Origin: Zootoca vivipara
Lineage: Eukaryota
Assembly (NCBI RefSeq): GCF_963506605.1
Contig: NC_083278.1
Location: 74,834,001-74,898,000, forward strand
Length of the DNA: 64,000 nt
Direction: 5' to 3'
Under the pieces are notes generated by a model that was not told where the DNA came from, did no database searches, and saw only the letters and a list, made by a program, of their open reading frames with translations. The translations under genes were made by a program, and so were the position numbers. This document shows positions 1 through 56,200 of this stretch, piece after piece (position 1 is the first letter of the stretch; each line of letters starts with the position of its first letter).

Positions 1-460
1 CCAGCTCTACAATATCCTTTTTGAGGTCAGGTGATCAGAACTGTACAGAGTATTAAAAATGTGGTTGCATCCTATATTTGTATAACCTCATTGTGATATC
101 CACAGTTTTATTTTTAACTGCTTTCCTAATCTTCCCTAGCATGAAAATTGCCTTTTTACCACCCATTCACTCAGTTTGGAGATGTTATTTTGGAGCTCTC
201 TGCAATCTCTTTATTTTAACAGCCCTGAACAATGTAGTATCATCAGCAAACTTGGACACCTCATTGCTTACCCTCAACTCTAGGCTGTTTATGAGCAAGT
301 TAAAAAGCACAGTGCGCCCCATACCAATCCTTGGGAGACTCCATTTTCTACATCCCTCTATTCAGAGAACTACTTCCTACTACTTAAGCAATTCCTGATC
401 CACAAGAAGACCTCTCCTCTTATCCCATGACTGCTAAGCCTAAGTCTTTGGTGAGGTACC
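1..460 (-). mobile_element. CR1 LINE reverse-transcriptase fragment (degraded)
   Basis: Minus strand near 235-270 reads SNEVSKFADDT (RT F/YADD motif). A CR1-like 'ctgtacagttctgatcacc' segment lies near the window start. Boundaries approximate. Confidence 0.7.
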
Positions 461-702
461 TGTCATAATAGTATGAAAACTTTCTTACTGAATGGAGATT
501 CATAGAGTGCTAGAAGAGATTCAAATGAACCCAACCTACTCCTCACAGTCAGGATTATCCAGTATCAAAAGCACTCTGAACAGATGAGGGTATAATTGCT
601 TCTTGAAAATATCTAAACACCAATTGGCTTGAGTATATGTGTTTTTGTGTATATGTTCTACCCCCAGAAGGCAAACCTTGTGCAAGACACTAGTTACCTG
701 TA

Positions 703-910
703 CAGTGGTACCTCTGGTTACGAACTTAATTCGTTCCGGAGGTCCGTTCTTAAGCTGAAACCGTTCTTATCCCGAGGCATGCTTTCGCTAATGTGGCCTC
801 GGGCGTGCGATTTCGGTTCGCATCCTGGGGCAAAGTTTGCAACCAGGAGCAGCTACTTCCGGGTTAGCGGAGCTCGTAACCTGAAGTGTTCGTAACCAGA
901 GGTACCACTG
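703..910. mobile_element. Tc1/mariner (pogo/Tigger-like) MITE, 208 bp
   Basis: Perfect 23-bp TIRs cagtggtacctctggttacgaac, TA target duplication at 701-702 and 911-912, CpGs intact. Confidence 0.9.
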
Positions 911-41680: not shown

Positions 41681-43044
41681 CATAATTAGGGCATAATCCA
41701 AACTTGGCCGCTGCCTGGCAGGGCTTAACAGGGTGGTGGGGCCAACTGCCACATATGTAGGTGGAAGGTTGGGGGCAAGCAGATAGCTGTGCCAGTAATT
41801 TGGCCTGGATTGGTGTCAATGCAGCCACATGATGGCAATGGAGTTAGTTCAGTTCCACTGCAGAACACTTCATATTGGGGTTTTCTGCTGGATGCATTTC
41901 TGCCCACTTTCATGTTTTTGGGCAGAAGGGGCAGTGCCACACTGGCAGTGATGTTAGCTTCCCTCCACTTGCAGAGGTGAGCAGAAGGAAGGGGCAGGAG
42001 GTGGAGGGGATGGCACCAGTCCTGGTCAGTCTTTGACCATATTGGGCACAGTAGACACTGCATCCAGAGTAGGAGCATGCATTATATTTCATTATTTTTA
42101 TTGTGGAACACTGTGATTATTCTCTTCAAAGAAAAGCAGAGTATAAATATCAGTTTAACTAAGCCCTGGCTATACAACCGTTTGAGGAGATAACAACACA
42201 CAGCATGCAGACATGGGTAGTAGAACTCGTGTTTTTTTTAAAATAAAAAAATAATAAACAGCTTCAGGGGGGAACCTATACCTCTGGATACTGGTACTGA
42301 GATGTACAAGAGCAGTGTTGTCGTGGTAGACCTTGAAGAGCAGGAGCTCATCATGGCTGCCCCTATAACAACACCACATGAGAGTCCCTAGCCATGCCCC
42401 AAGAGGAATTCAAAAATGCAGGCAGCTCTGTTGCTCCAGAATTCATTTATTTTTATTGTGTTTATTACCTTTCCTTTCTTTTGTCATGGAATCCAAAGTG
42501 CCACACATGTGGTTCCCAGGCTGAGATAGAAACACCCTCCACTTGGTCATTTTTTGAATGCTTCTAAAACTGGCTGTTAAACTCTGAAAATCTGATAGCA
42601 ATAGAATTCATTAAAGAATATGTTGCAGCAAAAGTGTCTGCTTAAGGAACACACACACACCACTTTTTAAAAAAGCATATATTTATATCCCCAACTTTTA
42701 CCTAGCATAATAAATAGCATAATAACCAATTTATTAGGATCAGCTGGCAATCATGGAATAGCAGCATGTCAAGGCTTTTGCTGAGGAGGCCTGGGTTGTC
42801 ATCCCTGATTAGCCATGAAATTTGCAGACTGACTTGCCTTAGGCCAATCAGACTAAGCTGTTTCACACCTAACACACCACCCACCAACCCTCCAAACCTA
42901 CAAGAATTAGCAAATACTGCTCCAGCATATGTTATAATCTACTGTGAGAAAAAAAGTACTGCACTCCCTGCTCCACTACACCACTGTGCAGCATCCAAGC
43001 CCATTTCTAGTCAAAGCAGACAACACTGGGCTGGATGAACCAAT

Positions 43045-44171
43045 CCCACGAAGGGAAACTCCCCACTGGAGTAGAAATCATATATCGAACAGATGGAAAG
43101 CTCTTCAATCTGAGTAGGCTGAAAGCAAAGATTAAGGTTACCGTAATGTCTGTCATAGAGCTTCAGTATGCTGATGACAACGTAGTGTGTGCACGCTCAG
43201 AGGATGACATCCTAAACATCTTTGCAGAAGCTTACAAAAAGCCTGGCCTTTCACTCAACATCCAAAAAACCAAAGTGCTGCACCAACAAGTACAAAATAA
43301 CCCCTCTGCAGAGCTACAAATCCAACTCAATGGTGTAACGTTAGAAAATGTTGGTCACTTCTCATACCTAGGCAGTTATCTATCCACAAGGGCCAACGTT
43401 GATGCCAAAATCCAGCATTGCCTGAGCTTTGCAAGTGCGGCTTTCTCCCGATTGAAGTGCAGAGTGTTTGAGGACTGGGACATTCACAGGGAAACCAAAA
43501 TGCTTGTTTACAAAGCTATTGTACTACCAACCTTACTATATGCTTGTGAAATATGGACCACTTATAAATGCCATCTCCAACTCCTCGAAAGATTCCATCA
43601 ATGGTGTCTCTGAAATTTTTTACACATCACGTGGGAAGACAGGCAAACTAATATCAGTGGAAGAAGCAAAGATCACCAGTGTTGAAGCACTGCTTCTTCA
43701 ACATCAACTTTGTTGGACTGGTCATGTTGTACAGATGCCTGATGATCGTCTTCCAAAGCAATTACTCTATTCCGAACTTAAAAATGGAAAGCGCAATGCT
43801 GGTGGTCAACAAAAGAGGTTTACAGACTGTCTCAAGGCAAATCTTTAAAAAAGTAGTATAAACACTGACAACTGGGAAACACTGGCCTGCGAGCACTCCA
43901 GTTGGAGAACAGCCTTTACCACAGGTGTCATGGGCTTTGAAGAAACTCGATCTCAGGATGCAAGGGAGAAACGTGCTAAGAGGAAGGCACACTTGGCAAA
44001 TCCACACCGTTATCAACTCCCGCCTGGAAACCAATGTCCCCACTGTGGAAGGATGTGCGGATCCAGAATTGGCCTCCATAGTCACTTACGGACTCATTGT
44101 TTAAACCGTGTTTATGGAAGACAATCTTACTCGGCTGCGAGTGATCGCCAAAGAAGAAGAAGAAGAAGAAC
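43045..44171 (+). mobile_element. RTE-clade LINE 3' portion (RT with YADD, C-terminal C2H2 finger, (GAA)n tail); disrupted
   Basis: YRTDGKLFNLSRLKAK...ELQYADD...LYACEIW and CPHCGRMCGSRIGLHSHLRTH, with stops and frameshifts. Possible TSD aaccaat. Confidence 0.88.
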
Positions 44172-44874
44172 AACCAATATTCATAAGTGTCATGAAGTGT
44201 GATTTTGAGTGGAGAAAAGGCAAGGGGTGGGAAAGGGGCTCAGACCTTTCCCTTTCTGATGGTTCTCCACACCAAATAAGCAGCCCCTGCCCTTCCACAG
44301 TTAAAAACATGAATGAACAACATTTTGAATCCCTAAGTGGGAAGCAGCTGTACATCTCTTTGGAAGAGAGAAACAGTGAGAGGTGGAAGGATAACGCACG
44401 CCTTTCCCCTGGTTTCTTTTTATTTAATATTGCCCTTTCAAGCTGCTATTCTTTTTTAAAATGATAATGTGTATATCGAGGGCTTTGTCACATGTATTTG
44501 CTTGAAGTGTGTAGGCAGGCTCCAACTTGTAAGTCAGCCAGAAAGACAAACAGAATCATCTGCTAACCCTCGTGCCTGATGTAAACATAGGCATTTAACT
44601 TGCGTGTCAGTTTCCTGATGTCTGTGCTGCTCTCTTATATCTCCAGAGTTGTAATTTGAACTCCAAAGCAGAAACAAAGACTGACAAGTATATCCATTAA
44701 CCAGGCTTCACTTTAACCATCTGGATTCAGTTTCTGAACTTTCCAGTACTGTCTCTGCATCAGATGTCACAAGTATTACATCTTTCTACTACCGAAAAAT
44801 GTTAGATAGCAAAAAGGAGAAAGCAAATTCCATTGAGCAAACACACTTTTCACTGTAGTGAAGCGCGGTGAATG

Positions 44875-46585
44875 AAATGGAGAAGGAAAACACGGTATTG
44901 CAATAGCGAAAAAGGTACAATACCTGGGAATTTGGATGACAGCAAAAAATATAAACCTGTTTAATGACAATTATGAACCAGTATGGAAAGAGATAAAGAA
45001 GGATTTAGAAACATGGAACAGAATGAAGCTGTCGTTCCTTGGAAGAATAGCTGCAATAAAGATGAATGTATTACCCAAAATGTTATTCTTGTTTCAAATG
45101 ATTCCTATAATAAAGGGAACAGGACGATTCAAAGAATGGCAAAAAGTTTTGCAGAGATTTGTCTGGCAGGGGAAGAAACCAAGAATAAAATATAAGATTT
45201 TGGTGGATAGAAAAGAGAGAGGTGGATTCTCTATGCCGGACCTGAGGTTATACTATGAGGCGTCCTGTCTCTGTTGGCTAAAAGATTGGATAACATTGGG
45301 AAATACAGACTTATTAGATTTGGAAGGATACGACAACAGATTTGGGTGGCATTCATATCTTTGGTATGATAAGAAAAGAGTTCATAAAGGTTTTACAAAT
45401 CATGTGATAAGAAGGTCTTTGTTTGAGGTATGGGAAAGAAACAAATCGCTGTTACAGACTAAGACTCCATGGTGGATTTCATCAGTGGAGGTGTTGACAG
45501 TGAAAAAGATAAATATGGAAGGGAGGAGGCCTACCTATGAGGAAATATTAAGAAAATCTGAACATGGCTGGAAATTGAAATCCTATGATGAAATCAAAGA
45601 TTCTTTGACTAGTTGGTTGCAGTACCACCAGGTAAATGATGTGCTTTCAAAGGACAAAAAATAGGTTTTGAAGACAAAAGGTCTAAATTTCAAATAGAAT
45701 TGTTGGAAGGCAGAACAAAATTGTTAGAATGGTATACAAAGGATGAATTGGCAAAGGATGTGATGATAAAATGGGCAAAAGATTTTGGGTACAATATTGA
45801 GTATGATGCGTGGTTGAAGTTATGGAATCAAACATTGAAGTTTACTGCATGTACTGCCCTGAAAGAGAATGTCTGGAAGATGATGTATAGATGGTATTTA
45901 ACACCAGCAAAATTAGCTAAAATGTATAGGATGAGTAATAAAATGTGCTGGAAATGTAATGAGAAGGAAGGAGATTTTTATCATATGTGGTGGAAATGCG
46001 AAAAAGTTAAAAGATTTTGGGAAATGATATATAACGAACTGAAAAAGATCCTTAAGTATACTTTCCCCAAAAAACCAGAGGCATTTTTATTAGGAATTAT
46101 TGGACAAGAGATTGCAAAGGAGGACTATATAATATTTTTGTATGCGACAACCGCGGCTAGGACTTTATTAGCCCAAAAATGGAACACTCAGGATTTACCG
46201 ATGACTGAAGAGTGGCAGACAAAAATGATAGACTATGCGGAACTAGCGAGACTGACTAGCAGGATCCGGAACCAGGGGGAAACAAGGTTCCAAAAAGACT
46301 GGAGTAAATTTGTGGACTATATGGAAAAGAACTGTAGAAGTTTAAAGACACTTGCAGGACTGAAATAAATCCTACGAATTGATTTTAAATGGATGGAATA
46401 AAGGAACTGCGAGATAAGAGCTGAATAGAAAACCAAATGAGGGGAGGGAGGGAAGTCAAGCTCGGCAGAGCATTGAGAAGGAGAAATTTGGGAAGAATTG
46501 TTAAAAAGATAGTTGTGTGTGTTATTTGTTTTTGAATGTTTGTTTGTTTTGTTTATTGTTTTAAATGTGTTTTCCTTCTTCATTT
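44875..46585 (+). mobile_element. L1 LINE ORF2 C-terminal half plus 3' UTR, with a frameshift near 45660
   Basis: KVQYLGIW...LSFLGRIAAIKMNVLPKMLFLFQ...GGFSMPDLRLYY and the cysteine-rich motif CWKC...FYHMWWKC; two consecutive ORFs, 44936-45664 and 45700-46368. Confidence 0.9.
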
Positions 46586-47759
46586 CATCCCCGTTTCTTC
46601 ACAACAGCATTTCCCCTCCCCATTTCATAATGTCTTCCTTTCCATACCTCTATTAAACCACTAACCCACATAGTCCCACTTAAGTATTACACTGCGTGCC
46701 CAGTTGCCTCCTGACAAGCAGACTCCCAGCTTGGCAAGACAGCAGCTTCAGCCTCCAGATAGGAAGCCATGGTGCAAAGGCAAGAGAGAGCTTGCTCAGT
46801 GGTAAGGAAAGAGGAAGTGTGTTTATCTGAAGGGAGGATAGAAAGATATGTGCCCACCCCTCCAGAGTGTTGCTTGAGGCAACTGGCTCAGAAAGACTCA
46901 ATGGTAGCTCTGGCTCTGGTTCATTGCCACCAGACCCAGGAAGGCAGGGTCTCGAATACCTTCAGCTAAAAACACTGCTTATCGTGTTCAAGGTGCTTAG
47001 AAGTCATTAGAATGGGGTGGTGTTTAAGAGTTGCTGGGGGCGACATTTCAGCTTGGGGAAAAACATTTTTGCTACTTTTTGGACTATGTCCTTGTATTCT
47101 TTTTGTTAGGCCTCATTATGAATTGTTAAGTGGATTGTTTAATCAAAGTGTAGTTTTTTTAGTATGAGATGTTTTAATTAATCTATTACTGTTGTTCTTG
47201 TTATATCTTGAAATGTTATATTTTACTATGTGATTTTTTCTGATGCCGTGAGCCACTTTAAGCGTGGGTCACCATGCAAAAGCAGCATACAAATAAGCAT
47301 TGATGATGAAAAAGTGGCTTTGCTAAACCTTGTAAATAAAGGAAGACAAATCACACTTTTCTCATTATTCAAGGGTTTTGCAAAAATCCAGAAATACTTC
47401 ATTTCACATTATCTGCTTTAAAACAATGTCCGTATTTTAACTGCATCTGGATTTGGTAGCACAAAGAGGTCGTTTCAGTGAAGCCTAATCGAAATAAGAC
47501 TGGATGTAGCGTATGATTGTGTCTGAAGTCTTACTACTGTTCAGCATGCCTATTCGCATGTTAAAAACAATGTCAAGATTGTCCTTGTAAATCATTTATG
47601 CAAGGCAGCTCAGTTGTCATCGTTCTCATAGACCATAAAATGAATTTACTCAGACAGAAAGCTTTGTTATCCAAGGCTACATGTGATCGTCTCAAGGCAT
47701 GGAAAATATATTCCATGTGAGTGCAAGGACAATTAAAAAGTATTAAATCTGTTGCCAGC

Positions 47760-48218
47760 TGTCACAGATGGGTGTTGGCTACTCCCGAGTAAGCACTCCA
47801 CACATCCTCTGGATTTTCAGAGTTTTATTGTGCATGCTATATACAGTGGTGAGATGTCTCAAATCATGTCTGCTCTGCATGGGGCAGAAGCCCACAATGG
47901 CGTCTCATGGGCTCTGACCCCCCTTTTAAGACTGGGCATCCAAACGCCCCTCCTCCTTGCTCTATGGGTCCTCCGTGGTCCCAAAACAGGCTCCTGAGGT
48001 GCCGTTCTACTTACTCCCTCCTTTCCAGCCCCTGCTGAAGCTAGCTCCGCCCCTGCTTCCCTTCTCCCAGCCTGGAGCTGAGCCTCCAGGACTCTGCAGA
48101 GCCCTGGACCCTTCTTAACCCTTCCTGTTCCTGGTTTTCTCTCCCAGACTTGCTGCTGCTCTCCCATCTGATGGAAGTAAGCAGAGTGGGCTGCTCTCTG
48201 CAAGCCCTCTCTCTTACA
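47760..48218 (-). repeat. 3' LTR
   Basis: Direct repeat of 52745-53203 with one visible C/T difference; AATAAA on the minus strand. Confidence 0.95.
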
Positions 48219-49595
48219 TCCACCCCCCCTCCAGGCTCCCCCCCTTTCTGAGGCCTGGGTTGCCTGGTCTGATGTCTGTAAAGAGGGCTGGAAGCCTGAC
48301 AGGTCTTCCTCCTCTGTAGTGTGTGTAAAATCCTGTTCCCAGTCGGTGCTGGGTGGCTGGTCCGTGTAGTTCCCTCCGTTGTCATCCTCCCCCTCCCTCT
48401 GGAAAATTGCTTCCGATTCCCGGAGGGCTCCTTTGGTCTGCGTCTCCCCTGCTCCCCACCTGGGATCGCCCTCCCCCTCTGTGTTCCCTGTGCTACTGAC
48501 GTGTGGTGGTTTGGGTCTGTGGGAGAAAGGAGCGTGCAGTTCCAGTGTGCGGTCCTCCCCTTGCATGGTGTGTGTGGGTGCCTCCGCGTTTTGGGAAGCA
48601 GGAGTGCCCTGCCTGGCCATCAGACATTTTAACCCCCCCTCCCCCCACCGGGAGCCCGGACTCGCTGTGGCACTGTAGACCTCCTCCTCTTCCCTTCTTT
48701 CTGGAACGTCTTGGCTGCCTTCTCCCTCCACCCTTCTGTCTAGTGTCTTTTGTGTGATTTCCTCCCCCTCCCTCCTGTCAGCATCTTGTGTTGGATGTGT
48801 GTCACGTCCTCTGAACCTTGGGCTTTCCCTAAAGTGTGAGAGCAAAGACCTTTGACCCACGGGATGGACCTTTCTTGCTGTAGGTACTTCCCCCCTGAAG
48901 GTGACAGGGTTGATCTGTGTCAGAACCTTGAAGGGCCCCAGCCTTCTGGGTGCCAGCTTCTTCCCCCTTCCCCCCATGGGAAGGCCTTCTGACCACAGCC
49001 AGACCCTGTCCCCTCCGTTGAAGACCTTCTCCAGTCCCCTGTGATGGTCTGCCCCCTCCTTGTAAGCCTCATTGCTCCTCGCCAAGTCTCCATCCAGTTG
49101 TTGGTGTACTGTCTCCCTCCTCTCACCCCATGCCTCAATAGTTGGTCCCCCAATCTCCCCCTCCCCCTGCTCTGGGAAGGCTCTGGGGTTTCGCCCAAGA
49201 TTGGCCTTACTGGGCGTGAGCCTCGTGAAGACGTGTACTGCATGCCCCTCCATGGGGTTGTCATGATATTGCCTGAGAATCTTCCCTCTGAGGGAGTCCT
49301 GGGGTATATACAGGGCATCATTGCTAAAGAGTAACCCCTCTTTCTCTGCAAGCCCTTCCCCTGCCCCCTCTCCCTCCCTCAAGTCCCTCCGTATGTTCTG
49401 GGTAAAAGTGTCCTCTTTGGTGAGTTGGCTCAGTTTCTCTTCCTGCTTCCCCGCCTCTGCGTCGTTCCATCCGGCTGGGGAGCCGATGTGGTGCGATCCT
49501 GAGGATTCTCCTTCTTCCATTTTCATGATGGCCACAGTGGCTGTGCGCTCTCGGTATTCTCCTCCTTCCCTGCAGTGCTCCTTGTCGTCTGCATC
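47859..49595 (-). pseudogene. Gypsy pol remnant: integrase Zn-finger, GPY/F module and degenerate chromodomain; RT, RNase H and DDE core absent
   Basis: GLLFSNDALYIPQDSLRGKILRQYHDNPMEGH; GDRVWL...KKLAPRRLGPFKVLTQINPVTF...KVHPV; SRWGEGGLKCLMARQG...HRPKP. The frame stays open into the 3' LTR. Confidence 0.8.
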
Positions 49596-49793
49596 CAGGG
49601 GCGTAGCCAGGATCAAAACTAGGGGGGGGCAAGCCATGGTCATTCAGGGGCGGGGCCAAGGCACGGAAGGGGAGGGGCCACAAAGTGGGCAGGGCTAAAG
49701 GGCCAGTGGGCCTGATGACATCGTGGCGGTGGCAGCAGCGGCCACCTTGTGCTTCTGGGGCTGGTAGCGTTGGCGGCTACCCTGCTTGGCTGG

Positions 49794-50807
49794 AGAGGAC
49801 GGGAGGGTCGGGCAGGTGAGAGGGGGTGGCAGGGCGGGCGAGGGCGAGGCAAGACAAGGCCGCAGCCACGACGGCTCTGAGGCGTTGCTGCATATCAGCA
49901 TAATATTTCAACCATGGTTCAAGCCCCACCTTAGGAAAAAAATCCTGCATTGCAGGGGGTTGGACTAGATGACCCTTGTGGTCCCTTCCGACTACAATTC
50001 TATGATTCTATTGATATATTACCATAGCATATGCATCATTCTGCTTTCTTGAATTGTCCTACTCCTAGGCATAGCATCCAACTCCTAGAGGCCTAGGTGC
50101 CCCCCCCCCAATTACTGGTAAATACCGTATTTGAAAGAGTCATCCCATGTTGATGGGCTTTCTATGTGGGGCTTATCTGCCCCCCCGTATTTTATTAAGG
50201 ATGGAAGAGGGAGGGAAGGAAGGAAGAAATAGAGAGAGAGATAACTCATATTTGTGGGTGTCTCTGGATGACGCTGTGATGCTGGAACTCTGCAACAAGA
50301 GGACGGGAGGGTCGGGCAGGCGAGAGGGGGTGGCAGGGCGGGCGAGGGCGAGGCAAGGCATGGCCGCAGCCACGACGGCTCCGAGGCGTTGCTGCATATC
50401 AGCATAATATTTCAACCATGGTTCAAGCCCCACCTTAGGAAAAAAATCCTGCATTGCAGCGGGTTGGACTAGATGACCCTTGTGGTCCCTTCCGACTACA
50501 ATTCTACGATTCTATTGATATATTACCATACCATATGCATCGTTCTGCTTTCTTGAATTGTCCTACTCCTAGGCATAGCAGCCAACTCCTAGAGGCCTAG
50601 GTGCCTCTCCCCCCCCCCAATTACTGGTAAATCCCGTATTTGAAAGAGTCATCCCCCCATGTTGATGGGCTTTCTATGTGGGGCTTATCTGCCCCCCCCG
50701 TATTTTATTAAGGATGGAAGAGGGAGGGAAGGAAGGAAGAAATAGAGAGAGGGATAACTCATATTTGTGGGTGCCTCTGGGTGACGCTGTGATGCTGGAA
50801 CTCTGCA
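49794..50807. repeat. ~500-bp tandem duplication (two units, roughly 97% identical), each with a SINE/CR1-type 3' tail
   Basis: Units 49794-50294 and 50298-50807; about 13 substitutions plus poly-C indels counted by eye. Confidence 0.92.
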
Positions 50808-50852
50808 TGTACAGGAGCCTTGTAAGCAGCTTTCTCTCTGCTTGATTTACAG

Positions 50853-51188
50853 CAGGCACGTCCAACAGGTAGATTGTGATCTACCAGTAGATCACTGGAT
50901 GTCTGTGGTAGATCACTGGTAGGTCACTGGCACCCCTAAAAAAAGCTCACCCAAAATTTTCCTCCTCCCTCAAAAAAGTTGAACTATGACCTGAAGCCCT
51001 AAACAAAAATGGGCCTCCCTCCCTCCTAAAAGAAGCTCAACAAGTTTGACCTAAACCCCAAAAAACAGGGCTTCCCTTCCTTTTAAAAAAACTCAACAGC
51101 TTTGACCTGAACCCCCCAAAAGGGGGTAGATCACCCCCAGTTTTAAACTCTGAGTAGATCAGAGTCTCTTGGGAGGTGGCCACCCCTG
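50853..51188. mobile_element. hAT MITE nested inside the 2.1-kb hAT element
   Basis: cagg...cctg termini and 8-bp TSD atttacag at 50845-50852 and 51189-51196. Confidence 0.75.
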
Positions 51189-51701
51189 ATTTACAGTATA
51201 CAGATGCAGGAGGAGGGGCAGACTGGAACACCAATGCTTTTTATAAACATCACTGTGTCTGTCAAAGCTACAGCCCCCCCTTTCTTATTCACTTCTTTTT
51301 AGCCTTGCAGAGCCACCTTAGTCAAATTGAATCCTCTGAGTCTGCACCCTCATTAAATCGCCAATAGAACTCTTAATGCTCCTGAATGCTCATTAACAAC
51401 TCCCACTTAAGAACAATAGGGTGAAATGGTCAGCTATCGAATCTTGCCTGGGGATATATGCTCCATTGTCTTAACTGCTTAACTACTGGTAGCCACTTTG
51501 CTTTATTTATTTGATGTGTTTTTGTTACTGCTGTGTCCCCCCCCCCAGCAAGCGGAGACTTAGGTGCTCTTGCTAAAGCAAAGCCCTTTCCACTTCAGTT
51601 TTTGGAGGGGAAAAGTGCTGGTTATGGTCTGTAAAATACATTAATTTTTTTGCTTCTAGGGGGGGCAGCTGCCCCCTCCTGCCCCCCTGCCTACGCCCAT
51701 G

Positions 51702-52720
51702 TCTGCATCTCCAAAGGTGAGATCTCCCTGGCGCTGGCTGCCCACAGGGTCATTGTCCATTAAGTCCAAAGCTAGCACTTCTGAGTGCTTGTTCACTGTC
51801 ATCTTCCGAGAGGGGGTCTGTTGCGTGACCTCACCCTCCTGCAATTCCCTGCCGCCTACGGTCAAGACACTCATGGGCAGCTCCCTTGGGAAAATGGGAA
51901 TCTGATTCTGCTTAGCCAAGTCCACCGATAGGAAATCGTTGCTGCTGCCCCTGCAGAGAAGCCCGACTGTCTCCTGGGTCTGGCCTCTTGGCAGCTGCAG
52001 ACTCACTTCCATCACTTTGTCGTGCTGTGGGGTGTTACAGGAGGGCTCAGTTGTTGGTGCTCCGCCTGGCCCCTCCCCTCCTGATCTGGCATCCAGGCTT
52101 GTGTCTGTGCCTGCCTGCTCTCGCCATTCCTTCCTCTGGGGGCAGTGTTCCACCAAGAGGCTGGGTGCATTGTAAGGAGGCATCTCCCGCCTTTCTCTTC
52201 CCTCTGTTTTCCCGCGTCAGCGTTTGAAAGTACCCGTGCGCGGGCTTTGACCCTCTGCATCACATCTGGCTGGAGGGGTCTGTGCTGGGCTGCAGCTGCC
52301 TCCCCGGGACTGTGTGGGAACTTGTGGCCACTGCCTTTCCCCTCAGTCTGTCCCCTCTGCCCGGACTCGCTTTGCACCTCCTCCTGCACTTCCACGCCAC
52401 CATGCCTCTCAGCCTTAGAGCCAGCTTGTGCTGAGGGTCGCCCTTCAAAGTGCTGGCCCTTGGCGGCAACCAGCTCCTCAGCCCTCCCGAGTGTCCTCTC
52501 TGCTTGTCCAGCCTCCGCTCCTCCGGCCTGGCTGTGTTCAGAGCTGCTCGGTTCACCAAGCCTGGCTTCCCCTGTGATTAAGCGCCTACCTTGTTTTTGA
52601 GTTGTGCCATAGTTGCAGGGTGCTTGCTGCAGCTTGCTCTCTGCTGCTCCCCTCACGTGTGCCAATCCTTCCTCGGCATCTCTCTCTCCCCATTTAGATG
52701 CAGCTCTCTCCCCTCGGGTT
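51702..52720 (-). pseudogene. Gypsy gag and aspartic-protease remnants
   Basis: GLLCRGSSNDFLS aligns by eye with the ALIDSGAxxNFI motif, with the catalytic Asp lost. LTVGGREL..GEVTQQT follows. Gag-like FEGRP and a decayed zinc knuckle are frameshifted. Confidence 0.65.
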
Positions 52721-52744
52721 AGCCATTAAAGATTGTGGGCTTGC

Positions 52745-53203
52745 TGTCACAGATGGGTGTTGGCTACTCCCGAGTAAGCACTCCACACATCCTCTGGATT
52801 TTCAGAGTTTTATTGTGCATGCTATATACAGTGGTGAGATGTCTCAAATCATGTCTGCTCTGCATGGGGCAGAAGCCCACAATGGCGTCTCATGGGCTCT
52901 GACCCTCCTTTTAAGACTGGGCATCCAAACGCCCCTCCTCCTTGCTCTATGGGTCCTCCGTGGTCCCAAAACAGGCTCCTGAGGTGCCGTTCTACTTACT
53001 CCCTCCTTTCCAGCCCCTGCTGAAGCTAGCTCCGCCCCTGCTTCCCTTCTCCCAGCCTGGAGCTGAGCCTCCAGGACTCTGCAGAGCCCTGGACCCTTCT
53101 TAACCCTTCCTGTTCCTGGTTTTCTCTCCCAGACTTGCTGCTGCTCTCCCATCTGATGGAAGTAAGCAGAGTGGGCTGCTCTCTGCAAGCCCTCTCTCTT
53201 ACA
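52745..53203 (-). repeat. 5' LTR with TATA-like TTAAAA (52914-52909) and predicted TSS near 52883
   Basis: Direct repeat of 47760-48218; TATA-like box 31 nt upstream of ccATTG; AATAAA downstream. Confidence 0.9.
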
Positions 53204-56200
53204 CCATCCATTGACATTTTACAGCAGTAACTGATTTTGGAGATATGCAAAGATTTTATCCCAAACTCTGTTTGATTAGCTAGTAATCAGACCTTCTATC
53301 ATGTTCTTCTTTCCTATTAGCTACACAAACGGAAAGGATTCCCTATCCTTTTCATGCTTTTCATCATCTTACAGATTCTTTTCTGGGGCAGGGGCATGGA
53401 GAAATAGTTGCTTTCAACCAGCCATTTCTATAGTCGCTATTAAATATAATCACAAAGGAATAAAAACACAACATTTTCTTAAAAGAGTAAAATGATCTCA
53501 CCAAAGTATGTCTCTTTAGCTTGAGATATTAATCATCTGTTGCAGCAATCCAAGCATTGCCCTCAATCAAAGACCGGACATACTGTTCACCACACACAGG
53601 TCACAGTTCTTATCTTGTTTCTTTCTAGTTAAATCTTAGATTCATAAGCAGCAAACAACTGGGAGATAAATTAGACAGTGGAATCCAAACCACAGCACAA
53701 AATTATTGCTCAAATTCTAGAAGAGACGAGTGGTATCTATGGACCCATTCAGACATCCTTTTGCTTGTGCCATGATAGTTTCTGCTTATGAAGCTATTGG
53801 GGCAGTCATCTGCAATCCTGCTTTCAATGCTATATTTTGACCCACAAATACTGTGGGGTGATCACACAGCTTCGTTTCCAATCAGTGCATATCCTCCGGT
53901 GACATCCTGATGAAATTCTGCAATATTTCATACCATAAATATTCCAAGTGGTGCTGCATGAAGTTCCACCACTGCCCTGAGCAACTCTGTTCTGCCATGC
54001 AGCTGACCTTCGGCATGAAGCCAGTTCTCCAGGGCCCCATAAATAAGGGAAATCATACCATTGCTTGCAAACAGTTGAAGCTTCACAGCAAAAAGGTTCT
54101 ATTTGGATGTCTACTTTACAAACCATCTGTTCTGTGGCATAATATTTTGCACGCACATGCTTGCTTTAGTTCCTACAAACATATATATGCCATTATAGAG
54201 AGGGTTAAACAGGGGAACCAGGCAGGTGGGAGTTTACTGGCACATTTTGTTTTTCATACTATGCCAATCCGCTTTCATGAATTATTAGAAGACAAAACAA
54301 ACAAAAATGAAGAAACACAACCAACCCTTAGGCAGTAGGCTCTTCTACATGTATGCTTAGCCATGATACACCATTCCGTTCCATTCCCTCTCCCACTCAG
54401 TTTTCCCCCACCCACCCACCCTGTTTGTATTCTATGGCAACTGAGCACCCCCATTCTTATTTACACTGTTTTTGTCCTCCACCACACAACTAGGGTTCCC
54501 CCCTAATATTTTTTGTACTTTTGCAAACCTTGAGGTTTCCCTGTGCCTGCTGATACTTCTCTCATGTGCTGATGTGGTCATTTTGACTACATAAGCAAGA
54601 ACACACACGGGCGCATAGCTGGGGGGGGGCACAGCCCCAGGTGCATTTTTTTAGAGGGGGCATGACCAGGCACCCCCATGACAAGCTCCCTCATTGGAGC
54701 CTGACTCCGGCACATGAGGGAGCTGCTGAGGCAGCTTTCTTGCACCCGTCCGCAGCAGCTCCGCTCCTAGGACAAGCCTGACCCGGGGGGGGGGGGGTGA
54801 AGTATGGGAGAGACAGAGGCAGCGTTGCCACCCCTTTTCTGCACTGGGCTGCGCATGTGAGGGAGCTGCCCAAAAAAACCCCAAGCAAATATAACCTTTT
54901 TGGTTTTTTGTGGTGCGAAAAGCCTGTTTTTTATCTACTAGAAATAACACAACTGGACTTAACAGCATATCAGCCTTTGCAGAGAAGCCATTGGATGAGA
55001 AGAGGATCTTAAATATAGGCAATCCTTAGATCAGCAGCTTGGTCCACTAGCACAAGTCAGCATGGGCAAACTCTGCGAATTAACACACAAATAGATGCCC
55101 CAGGGCAAAGAGAAGAAGACCTCATCAAGGGAACTGTGTTTTGGGGAGCAGGGAGCTTGTTTTTGGAATTGAGCACTTTTACTGAGGCAGTTTGGAGGTG
55201 TCAGGGATGGCCAGAAATAAGTGACATAGGGTATCCATTGGCCAGTTGGCTTCCTTGGTGCTCTGCTTGTTCCCATCATGTGGGAGGGAGTGGAATCATA
55301 TGTCATGGTCATGAATGGAAACTTATCCTGTCTCCTGCTTTCATACCAAATGAATATGCATATGCCATATACAAACTGATTTTTAAACAGTGGATCTACA
55401 ATGTGCTTATTAAAACCACTGTCTGAAGAAAGACACAACTGGGTATGACGGTGGTAGCAGACCCATTTGGGGGACTATGTCTGTCCTGATGACACGTCAA
55501 GAGGGATGAGGAGGGACCTCATTTAAAGCAAAAGGGGTGCACAGATAAAGAGAACTGAGCCTGCACTTTCCCACCACCTCACCCTCTGAGCCCATCTCTC
55601 CAAGCCTAGCTCGCTTCTGGTATCAGAGCTCAACTGTAGGGGGAAAAATATGTCCGTCTGCATTGCTATTTTCCTAGAAAAAGAGGTGCCAGAACTCACC
55701 ATGAACATTGGTGAGTTCCGGCTGAAAAACAACAACCCTGTCCGCCTGGAGACAGACTATGGGAAGGTAAAATACAGATATGCAGTCACATGCAAACACG
55801 AGCAAAATCCGTATCACTGTCAGTGAAGTGAGGCCTGTCAGAGTGAGCTTAGCCATGCCATCTGTTTGCTTGTCAACCATCTGCTTTATTCCCAGGGGAT
55901 GTCATGTATATTGGCCTTAGCTAAACCCCACTGAAGTTACTGGAAGAGTTCTGGGAGCCTTCACTAGATTAGAAACAGACTCTTTATAAGCGGTGTAATA
56001 AAAATAATTATGCTTATTAAGACAGCTCAGCTAGCTTAGGCCTAAGAGTGTCAATAAACAGACATCGTTTTCTGAGAAATTGGAAATTCCATGTTAGGCT
56101 CGATGCCGAATGTTGTGACAGGAAGATCAACCGGTACAATGTTCTTCCCTGTTTGCATGCCAAACACGCGCATATAGAGCTCTCCCGCAAACCTACTTAA

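Follow-up and report, generated by a model that had tools for sequence, protein, structure and literature searches.

An 11-base LTR/primer binding site complement, and fossil traces of its likely use in self-priming, in a non-autonomous Tf1/sushi-type element of Zootoca vivipara

Following up a preliminary description of a possible self-priming retrotransposon, we analyzed a 64,000-nt stretch of the Zootoca vivipara genome (GCF_963506605.1, NC_083278.1:74,834,001-74,898,000), here called the window, in which all coordinates below are counted. Its minus strand carries a Ty3/gypsy chromovirus of the Tf1/sushi kind (Table 1), whose two LTRs differ at a single position (52906; 3′ LTR, 48218-47760). 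The element is interrupted by a 2.1-kb insertion that lies between 8-bp target-site duplications (TSDs) at 51709-51702 and 49595-49588, and that is unique to the window copy, being absent in 20 other copies compared; from the size of its terminal inverted repeats (TIRs) and TSD, we take it to be hAT-like. It contains an internal 504-bp duplication (94–97% identical) holding what is presumably a LINE-like 3′ tail fragment, and its TIR motif occurs at 1,340 sites genome-wide. Elsewhere in the window, LINE reverse-transcriptase fragments were recognized by eye on the plus strand at 43011-46368.

Table 1. Features of the element in the window, with the basis on which each was assigned
Feature	Position	Strand	Basis
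Left target-site copy GATGG	53204..53208	-	sequence
5′ LTR, 459 bp, TG...CA	52745..53203	-	sequence and LTR alignment
TTAAAA, TATA-like, at −31	52909..52914	-	sequence; T-rich tract instead in coding sister families
U3 arm, could pair with R nt 2–10 (hairpin over predicted start)	52890..52898	-	folding
Predicted self-primer, R nt 1–11	52873..52883	-	complementarity and covariation; start suggested by fossil errors
R nt 12–14 (CTG), complementary to CAG 52746-52744 with one bulged base	52870..52872	-	20/22 rows
AATAAA polyadenylation signal	52809..52814	-	conserved in all families aligned
U5 arm, U5–leader helix	52761..52774	-	covariation
GC spacer, LTR end to PBS (dinucleotide that integrase would trim)	52743..52744	-	sequence and TSD bases
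PBS, 11 nt, complement of R nt 1–11	52732..52742	-	sequence and family alignment
Leader arm, U5–leader helix	52713..52725	-	covariation
Leader with a degenerate region derived from gag/protease; no Pfam family matched	51702..52712	-	weak protease-region matches in other copies only
hAT-like non-autonomous insertion, 2.1 kb	49596..51701	.	16-bp imperfect TIRs, 8-bp TSD
pol remnant: integrase zinc-finger start fused to integrase C-terminal SH3/chromodomain region	48276..49520	-	43% amino acid identity to coding sister
Polypurine tract (PPT), GGA at its end before LTR	48219..48240	-	sequence
3′ LTR	47760..48218	-	LTR alignment
Right target-site copy GCTGG; single difference is the element's own GC end	47755..47759	-	TSD comparison

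The window copy belongs to a non-autonomous family with a typical length of about 3.3 kb. A search of the animal's own genome returned 927 first-look candidates, 40 of which were scored, and 20 copies were fetched whole; 19 of these have both LTRs in range (17 of 3.2–3.4 kb, one of 2.8 kb and one of 5.6 kb), and in 5 of the 19 the LTRs are identical. A pattern that leaves the primer binding site (PBS) free finds at least 131 junctions of this family, with the same PBS in 91 of the 100 listed. In the window copy, tblastn and Pfam detect no reverse transcriptase (RT), RNase H or integrase core; the three are missing in all seven copies tested, the window copy and six others; foreign pol pieces in one copy (L042) are located in an insertion. 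Measured against the Pol of a coding relative, residues 591–683 and 875–1166 are retained at 43% identity, with the chromodomain below Pfam detection and its homologous C-terminal region still in place. The preliminary description had held that the priming signal stays intact despite the loss of the enzymes. The enzymes are indeed gone, but ‘despite’ misstates the case, as non-autonomy and recent mobility mark the family as a whole, and for that reason the signal would be needed, and rewritten from the primer, in each cycle. Many copies also contain an open frame of 685–783 codons (L031-L050; window 47859-49643). The best frame has 1–5 stops where about 28 are expected, with pN/pS of 0.43–1.02, and drifts near neutrally, perhaps with selection acting against stops and not in favour of a protein.

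A search with a Tf2-type SH3 domain led to coding relatives, 11 of 20 loci belonging to one family of 5.8 kb that has LTRs of 428 bp, a long gag frame and a long pol frame, and is 72–74% identical to the window's integrase tail. In this sister family the gag and pol frames are separate and Gag-Pol is full, with RT, RNase H, integrase, SH3 and chromodomain in Pol, in the chromovirus order PR-RT-RH-IN with the chromodomain C-terminal; against the PDB, Pol has Ty3 as its best match, and Gag has no match. The RT was placed by its best protein matches, which are chromodomain-bearing gypsy proteins, and is 68–73% identical to lacertid, 52–54% to Anolis gypsy proteins, and 45–52% to fish, amphibian and fungal chromoviruses. 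Since the sister shares its U5 end, GC spacer, PPT and 5-bp TSDs with the window family, it is the likely helper, and the window family probably borrows its enzymes. The junction pattern common to both occurs at 1,739 sites in the genome against 0 for the control pattern, a few of them chance matches. Miniature derivatives of the coding families (L237 and L259; 1.6 kb and about 1 kb) have two LTRs and an intact PBS. We take the window family to be akin to LARD/TRIM-like non-autonomous LTR derivatives, with which it has in common intact LTRs, PBS, PPT and TSDs, deleted enzymes and many young copies, and from which it differs in its length of about 3.3 kb, its 685–783-codon frame and a primer unlike that of its presumed helper.

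A search by RNase H was dropped as a route to the helper, as it gave tRNA-primed gypsy families instead: 15 of 20 loci are gypsy elements with ordinary TGG sites, which we kept as a control set. Some of these families (L083-L099) are very young, with single frames of about 1,386 codons, identical LTRs and at least 150 RNase H matches. An unrelated gypsy family (L123, L124, L126-L129) has a 10-bp self-complementary PBS with a C after it, and in 6 of 9 loci the 10-bp self-complement is accompanied by ATAAAA at −31.

On the minus strand, the LTR of the window copy is followed by a 2-nt GC (52744-52743) and then by AAGCCCACAAT at 52742-52732, which is the exact reverse complement of ATTGTGGGCTT at 52883-52873. 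Shuffling the LTR with its dinucleotides preserved yields an 11-nt complement to the stretch 0–5 nt past the LTR in 20 of 20,000 trials. Pairing ends at A52883, where the next pair would set C opposite C; the base before A52883 is C, and TTAAAA begins 31 nt 5′ of it, at 52914. The preliminary description had reported the 11-nt complement, its beginning at a pyrimidine-A 31 nt downstream of TTAAAA and the lack of a TGG tRNA-type PBS past the 5′ LTR, and all three are confirmed, with no TGG in the first 18 nt. Its use of TTAAAA as a promoter cue fares less well: the motif is present at −31, but lends weak support, as the coding sisters have a T-rich tract there. A DPE-like motif, AGACAT at +28, occurs in the window family only and was set aside.

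If this complement is used, changes in R should be compensated in the PBS, as the preliminary description had proposed, and such changes are present both within the window family and across the sister families. All 26 window-family junctions fetched first pair at 11 of 11 positions, and in one of them R and PBS are both changed. The identical double change recurs in another copy that is more divergent. All loci fetched together show eight types of primer and PBS, each perfectly complemented. In a set of 148 aligned junctions, enriched for variants and with a few loci counted twice, 130 pair 11/11, 14 depart from this at the last PBS base alone and the remaining 4 have one wobble or mismatch each; R begins 139–150 nt before the LTR end throughout, and the base at −1 is C in all 148. 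Covariation was measured on 22 representatives picked from perfectly paired rows, in which only the covariation, and not the pairing itself, can bear weight. Here 6 of the 11 pairs of the central R/PBS duplex are changed on both sides. In a helix between U5 and the leader, pairing reaches 92% and both partners have changed in 3 of 13 pairs; slid controls are 27–49% paired. One base of the leader arm in the window copy is unlike most family copies, which weakens the helix here. The 3-bp CTG/CAG helix 5′ of the PBS is kept in 20 of the 22 and does not covary.

The compensated changes are also repeated. On a tree of 47 sister rows, built after removal of primer and PBS, the 13 rows compensated at nt 2 do not group as a single clade (p-AU 5e-49), and for one type at least 4 changes are required on starred branches, though recombination between copies could break clades too. 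PBS base 10 was tried as a control and dropped, as its 45 matches proved mostly to be further subfamilies (all 22 examined are compensated); 2 of the 45 are non-elements and none belongs to the window family.

Equilibrium folding of the RNA does not lend support. When the first 184 nt are folded, the structure of minimum energy includes the R/PBS duplex (z −1.5). With a further 60 nt of leader, the probability of the duplex falls to about 0 for the window copy, and it is ≤0.06 in 7 of 10 representatives; the model is nested and cannot hold a pseudoknot, so it is forced to choose between the R/PBS duplex and the U5–leader helix. A hairpin of U3 and R across the predicted start (52898-52874) is expected in the RNA only where it is copied from the 3′ LTR, and in one copy (L019) the U3 arm, R and PBS all have the matching change. 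As a general masking device this hairpin was rejected, as it beats shuffles (≤7/100) in only 6 of 12 representatives.

Transcripts were sought in three raw RNA runs, of each of which about 6% was read, and in one contig set; one run was also mapped to a closer copy. In run X16, 283 and 300 reads lie over U3, R, PBS and leader, almost all in one orientation, which for a stranded library of the usual kind would be the sense strand of the element. No pile-up of starts is seen at the predicted +1 in 300 reads of this run, where a 5′ start is hidden because reads from 3′ LTRs cover U3. Among the matches listed for the stretch, none is recorded as RNA.

These data leave some room for the same 11-nt primer acting in trans, either as the 5′ terminus of another RNA packaged with the first or as a piece cleaved out of the R of the 3′ LTR. 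Covariation and the copying errors described below are blind to cis versus trans, and nested folding does not favour a cis duplex. However, the U5–leader helix covaries as the cis structure of Tf1 would, none of the 148 junctions mixes the R of one subfamily with the PBS of another, the sister's primer differs from the window PBS at 4 of 11 bases, and the 3′ R copy of the window family is predicted to be masked by U3. We therefore regard a primer in trans as improbable, and return to pairing in cis.

The plus-strand strong stop of LTR elements regenerates the PBS by copying the primer. Errors at the end of a self-primer could be left in integrated copies. A genome-wide search for changes at the last PBS base gave 15 matches, one of them a non-element; all 14 elements read A at this position and none C or G. 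Nine are substitutions (five in the window family), three are insertions of an extra A and two are junctions of one tandem array, and in all of them R is unchanged. The five window-family variants are not one clade (p-AU 0.0015, 55 rows). At the base after the PBS, 24 junctions are not C and 21 of these are G, the complement of U3 −1. Complementarity to U3 extends over 1 nt in 7 of the 21, over 6–9 nt in 12, a class that is partly chance similarity, and over all of U3 in 2; in two junctions (L188 and L196) the letters past the PBS follow copy-specific letters of U3. The 19 short extensions need 17 changes on the tree and are polyphyletic (p-AU 1e-11). All 21 are in the sister family and the window family has none.

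The two long G extensions end at the LTR boundary and so are read as fold-backs of plus-strand DNA, with the 3′ PBS on R; for these two the boundary ends favour fold-back over transcription from upstream starts, while for the 19 short extensions an upstream start and a DNA fold-back look alike. Products in which an LTR and PBS are followed by an inverted U3 are integrated at L188/L240 and L192/L244 (about 255-820, reverse strand), and one fold-back product lies between the copies of a 5-bp TSD, as an insert with U3 at either end. In the window family, the sequence of one copy (L176) jumps to U3 directly after PBS base 11. A sister locus (L309) consists of three tandem LTRs joined by spacer, PBS and GGA with a period of 444, lacks an internal region and has a 5-bp TSD. 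A cap-templated origin of the C after the PBS was also considered and put aside as inseparable from plain conservation.

The other end of the primer is recorded in target sites. The 5-bp TSDs are perfect in 61 of 70 elements, and in the other nine (the window copy, L027, L043, L044, L047, L130, L236, L238 and L248) all 14 mismatched positions carry the unprocessed terminal bases of the element itself (GC from its U5 end or GGA from its U3 end), which suggests that integrase overhangs were retained during repair. The GC bases fit DNA synthesis starting beside the PBS. Taken together, the fossils place the end of the copied primer at A52883 and have DNA begin at the GC spacer, by routes that we infer.

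Fold-back itself offers another explanation, in which R and PBS came to match as a side effect of DNA fold-back or of conversion and some other host RNA primes. Fold-back of the plus strand onto R did happen (L188, L192) and could copy R into the PBS. The recorded fold-backs run past the PBS, though, and leave it unrewritten; a host primer would fix the PBS, yet eight PBS forms track R; and the errors cluster at the base opposite +1. We hold this to be less probable again than a primer in trans. A tRNA 3′ end or half-tRNA as the primer, or use of the TGG that is present 19 nt after the LTR, is scarcely credible and already largely refuted, even with a tRNA set that is partial (33 tRNA-like sequences, 9 amino-acid types): no CCA end fits, as there is no TGG at offsets 0–5 past the LTR, the best internal match of a tRNA to the PBS is 6 nt (5 nt at the downstream TGG), that TGG is an arm of the U5–leader helix and missing in most sister copies, and eight PBS types cannot share one tRNA.

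We conclude that the window holds the 5′ end of a non-autonomous element of Tf1/sushi type that very probably primes with 11 bases of its own LTR, a reading the preliminary description had offered and that the compensatory changes and the best matches of the relatives' RT, which are to fungal and vertebrate chromoviruses, support. In the cycle we envisage, Pol II would start at A52883, a position we infer, and nt 1–11 would pair with the PBS beside the U5–leader helix, as the covariation suggests. By analogy with Tf1, the helper's RT/RNase H would cut past nt 11, and minus-strand DNA would begin at the GC spacer, leaving the GC of the cDNA end that is recorded in target sites. Plus-strand strong stop would then recopy the primer into the PBS and halt at base 11, rewriting the PBS from R; the errors and fold-backs seen exactly at PBS base 11 may be left by this step. 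Finally, the integrase of a putative helper would insert the element, which bears the 5-bp TSD.

These steps resemble known systems. Tf1 RNA pairs with its PBS through the first 11 bases, which RNase H removes (PMC7175516); about half of its cDNA keeps a single-stranded PBS, some PPT bases are kept and its RT adds non-templated bases (PMC11042837), three properties that match the fossils described here. A ‘pretzel’ structure of three duplexes has been described, in a source that equates the chromovirus cluster of fungi and vertebrates with Tf1/sushi (bioRxiv 2022.12.06.519325), and the choice of start site matters in Tf2 (PMC5341516). Like Tf1/Tf2 of Schizosaccharomyces pombe and Tj1 of S. japonicus, the element is of the chromovirus lineage, has an 11-nt complement between the start of R and the PBS and no tRNA site, and has candidate counterparts of the flanking ‘pretzel’ helices, of which that between U5 and leader covaries and the other is 3 bp. 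Unlike Tf1, it lives in a vertebrate host, its family is without RT, RNase H and integrase core, the sister has separate gag and pol frames, and start and cleavage are predicted here. Self-priming has been ‘implicated’ from fungi to vertebrates (PMC4600332, PMC6317226) and was predicted for vertebrate Tf1/sushi elements (Butler et al. 2001, via citing papers); PMC3601003, PMC3035444 and PMC7472051 add little. Sushi-ichi and Amn-ichi/ni/san (GyDB V-clade) are alike in their predicted self-priming and probably related to the sister in RT, while the elements here add to complementarity independent compensated changes, errors at the primer end and fold-backs. In the literature covered, which leaves the primary papers and most subscription journals outside, we found nothing on self-priming in squamates or on fossil footprints of it.

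Self-priming is proven in fission yeast and, in that literature, only predicted for vertebrates. The mechanism itself is thus already known, and the repeated compensations and fixed intermediates are the new part. On balance we lean towards reading some 1,700 young junctions as a fossil record from which the two ends of a self-primer in a vertebrate can be mapped with no experiment. In this record the last step of RT on the primer (a misread or skipped cap-adjacent A, the fold-back of the single-stranded PBS onto R) and unprocessed cDNA ends would have been fixed, and a helper with a different primer would process its parasite by shape and not by sequence. If true, this would be the first mechanistic evidence of tRNA-free priming in an amniote and would open a genome-only route to confirming self-priming in any group. 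A large and recently mobile amniote group here supplies a short RNA for a direct test of the prediction. Silencing by 3′ tRNA fragments is described for tRNA-primed elements (PMC7472051), and self-primed elements would escape it.
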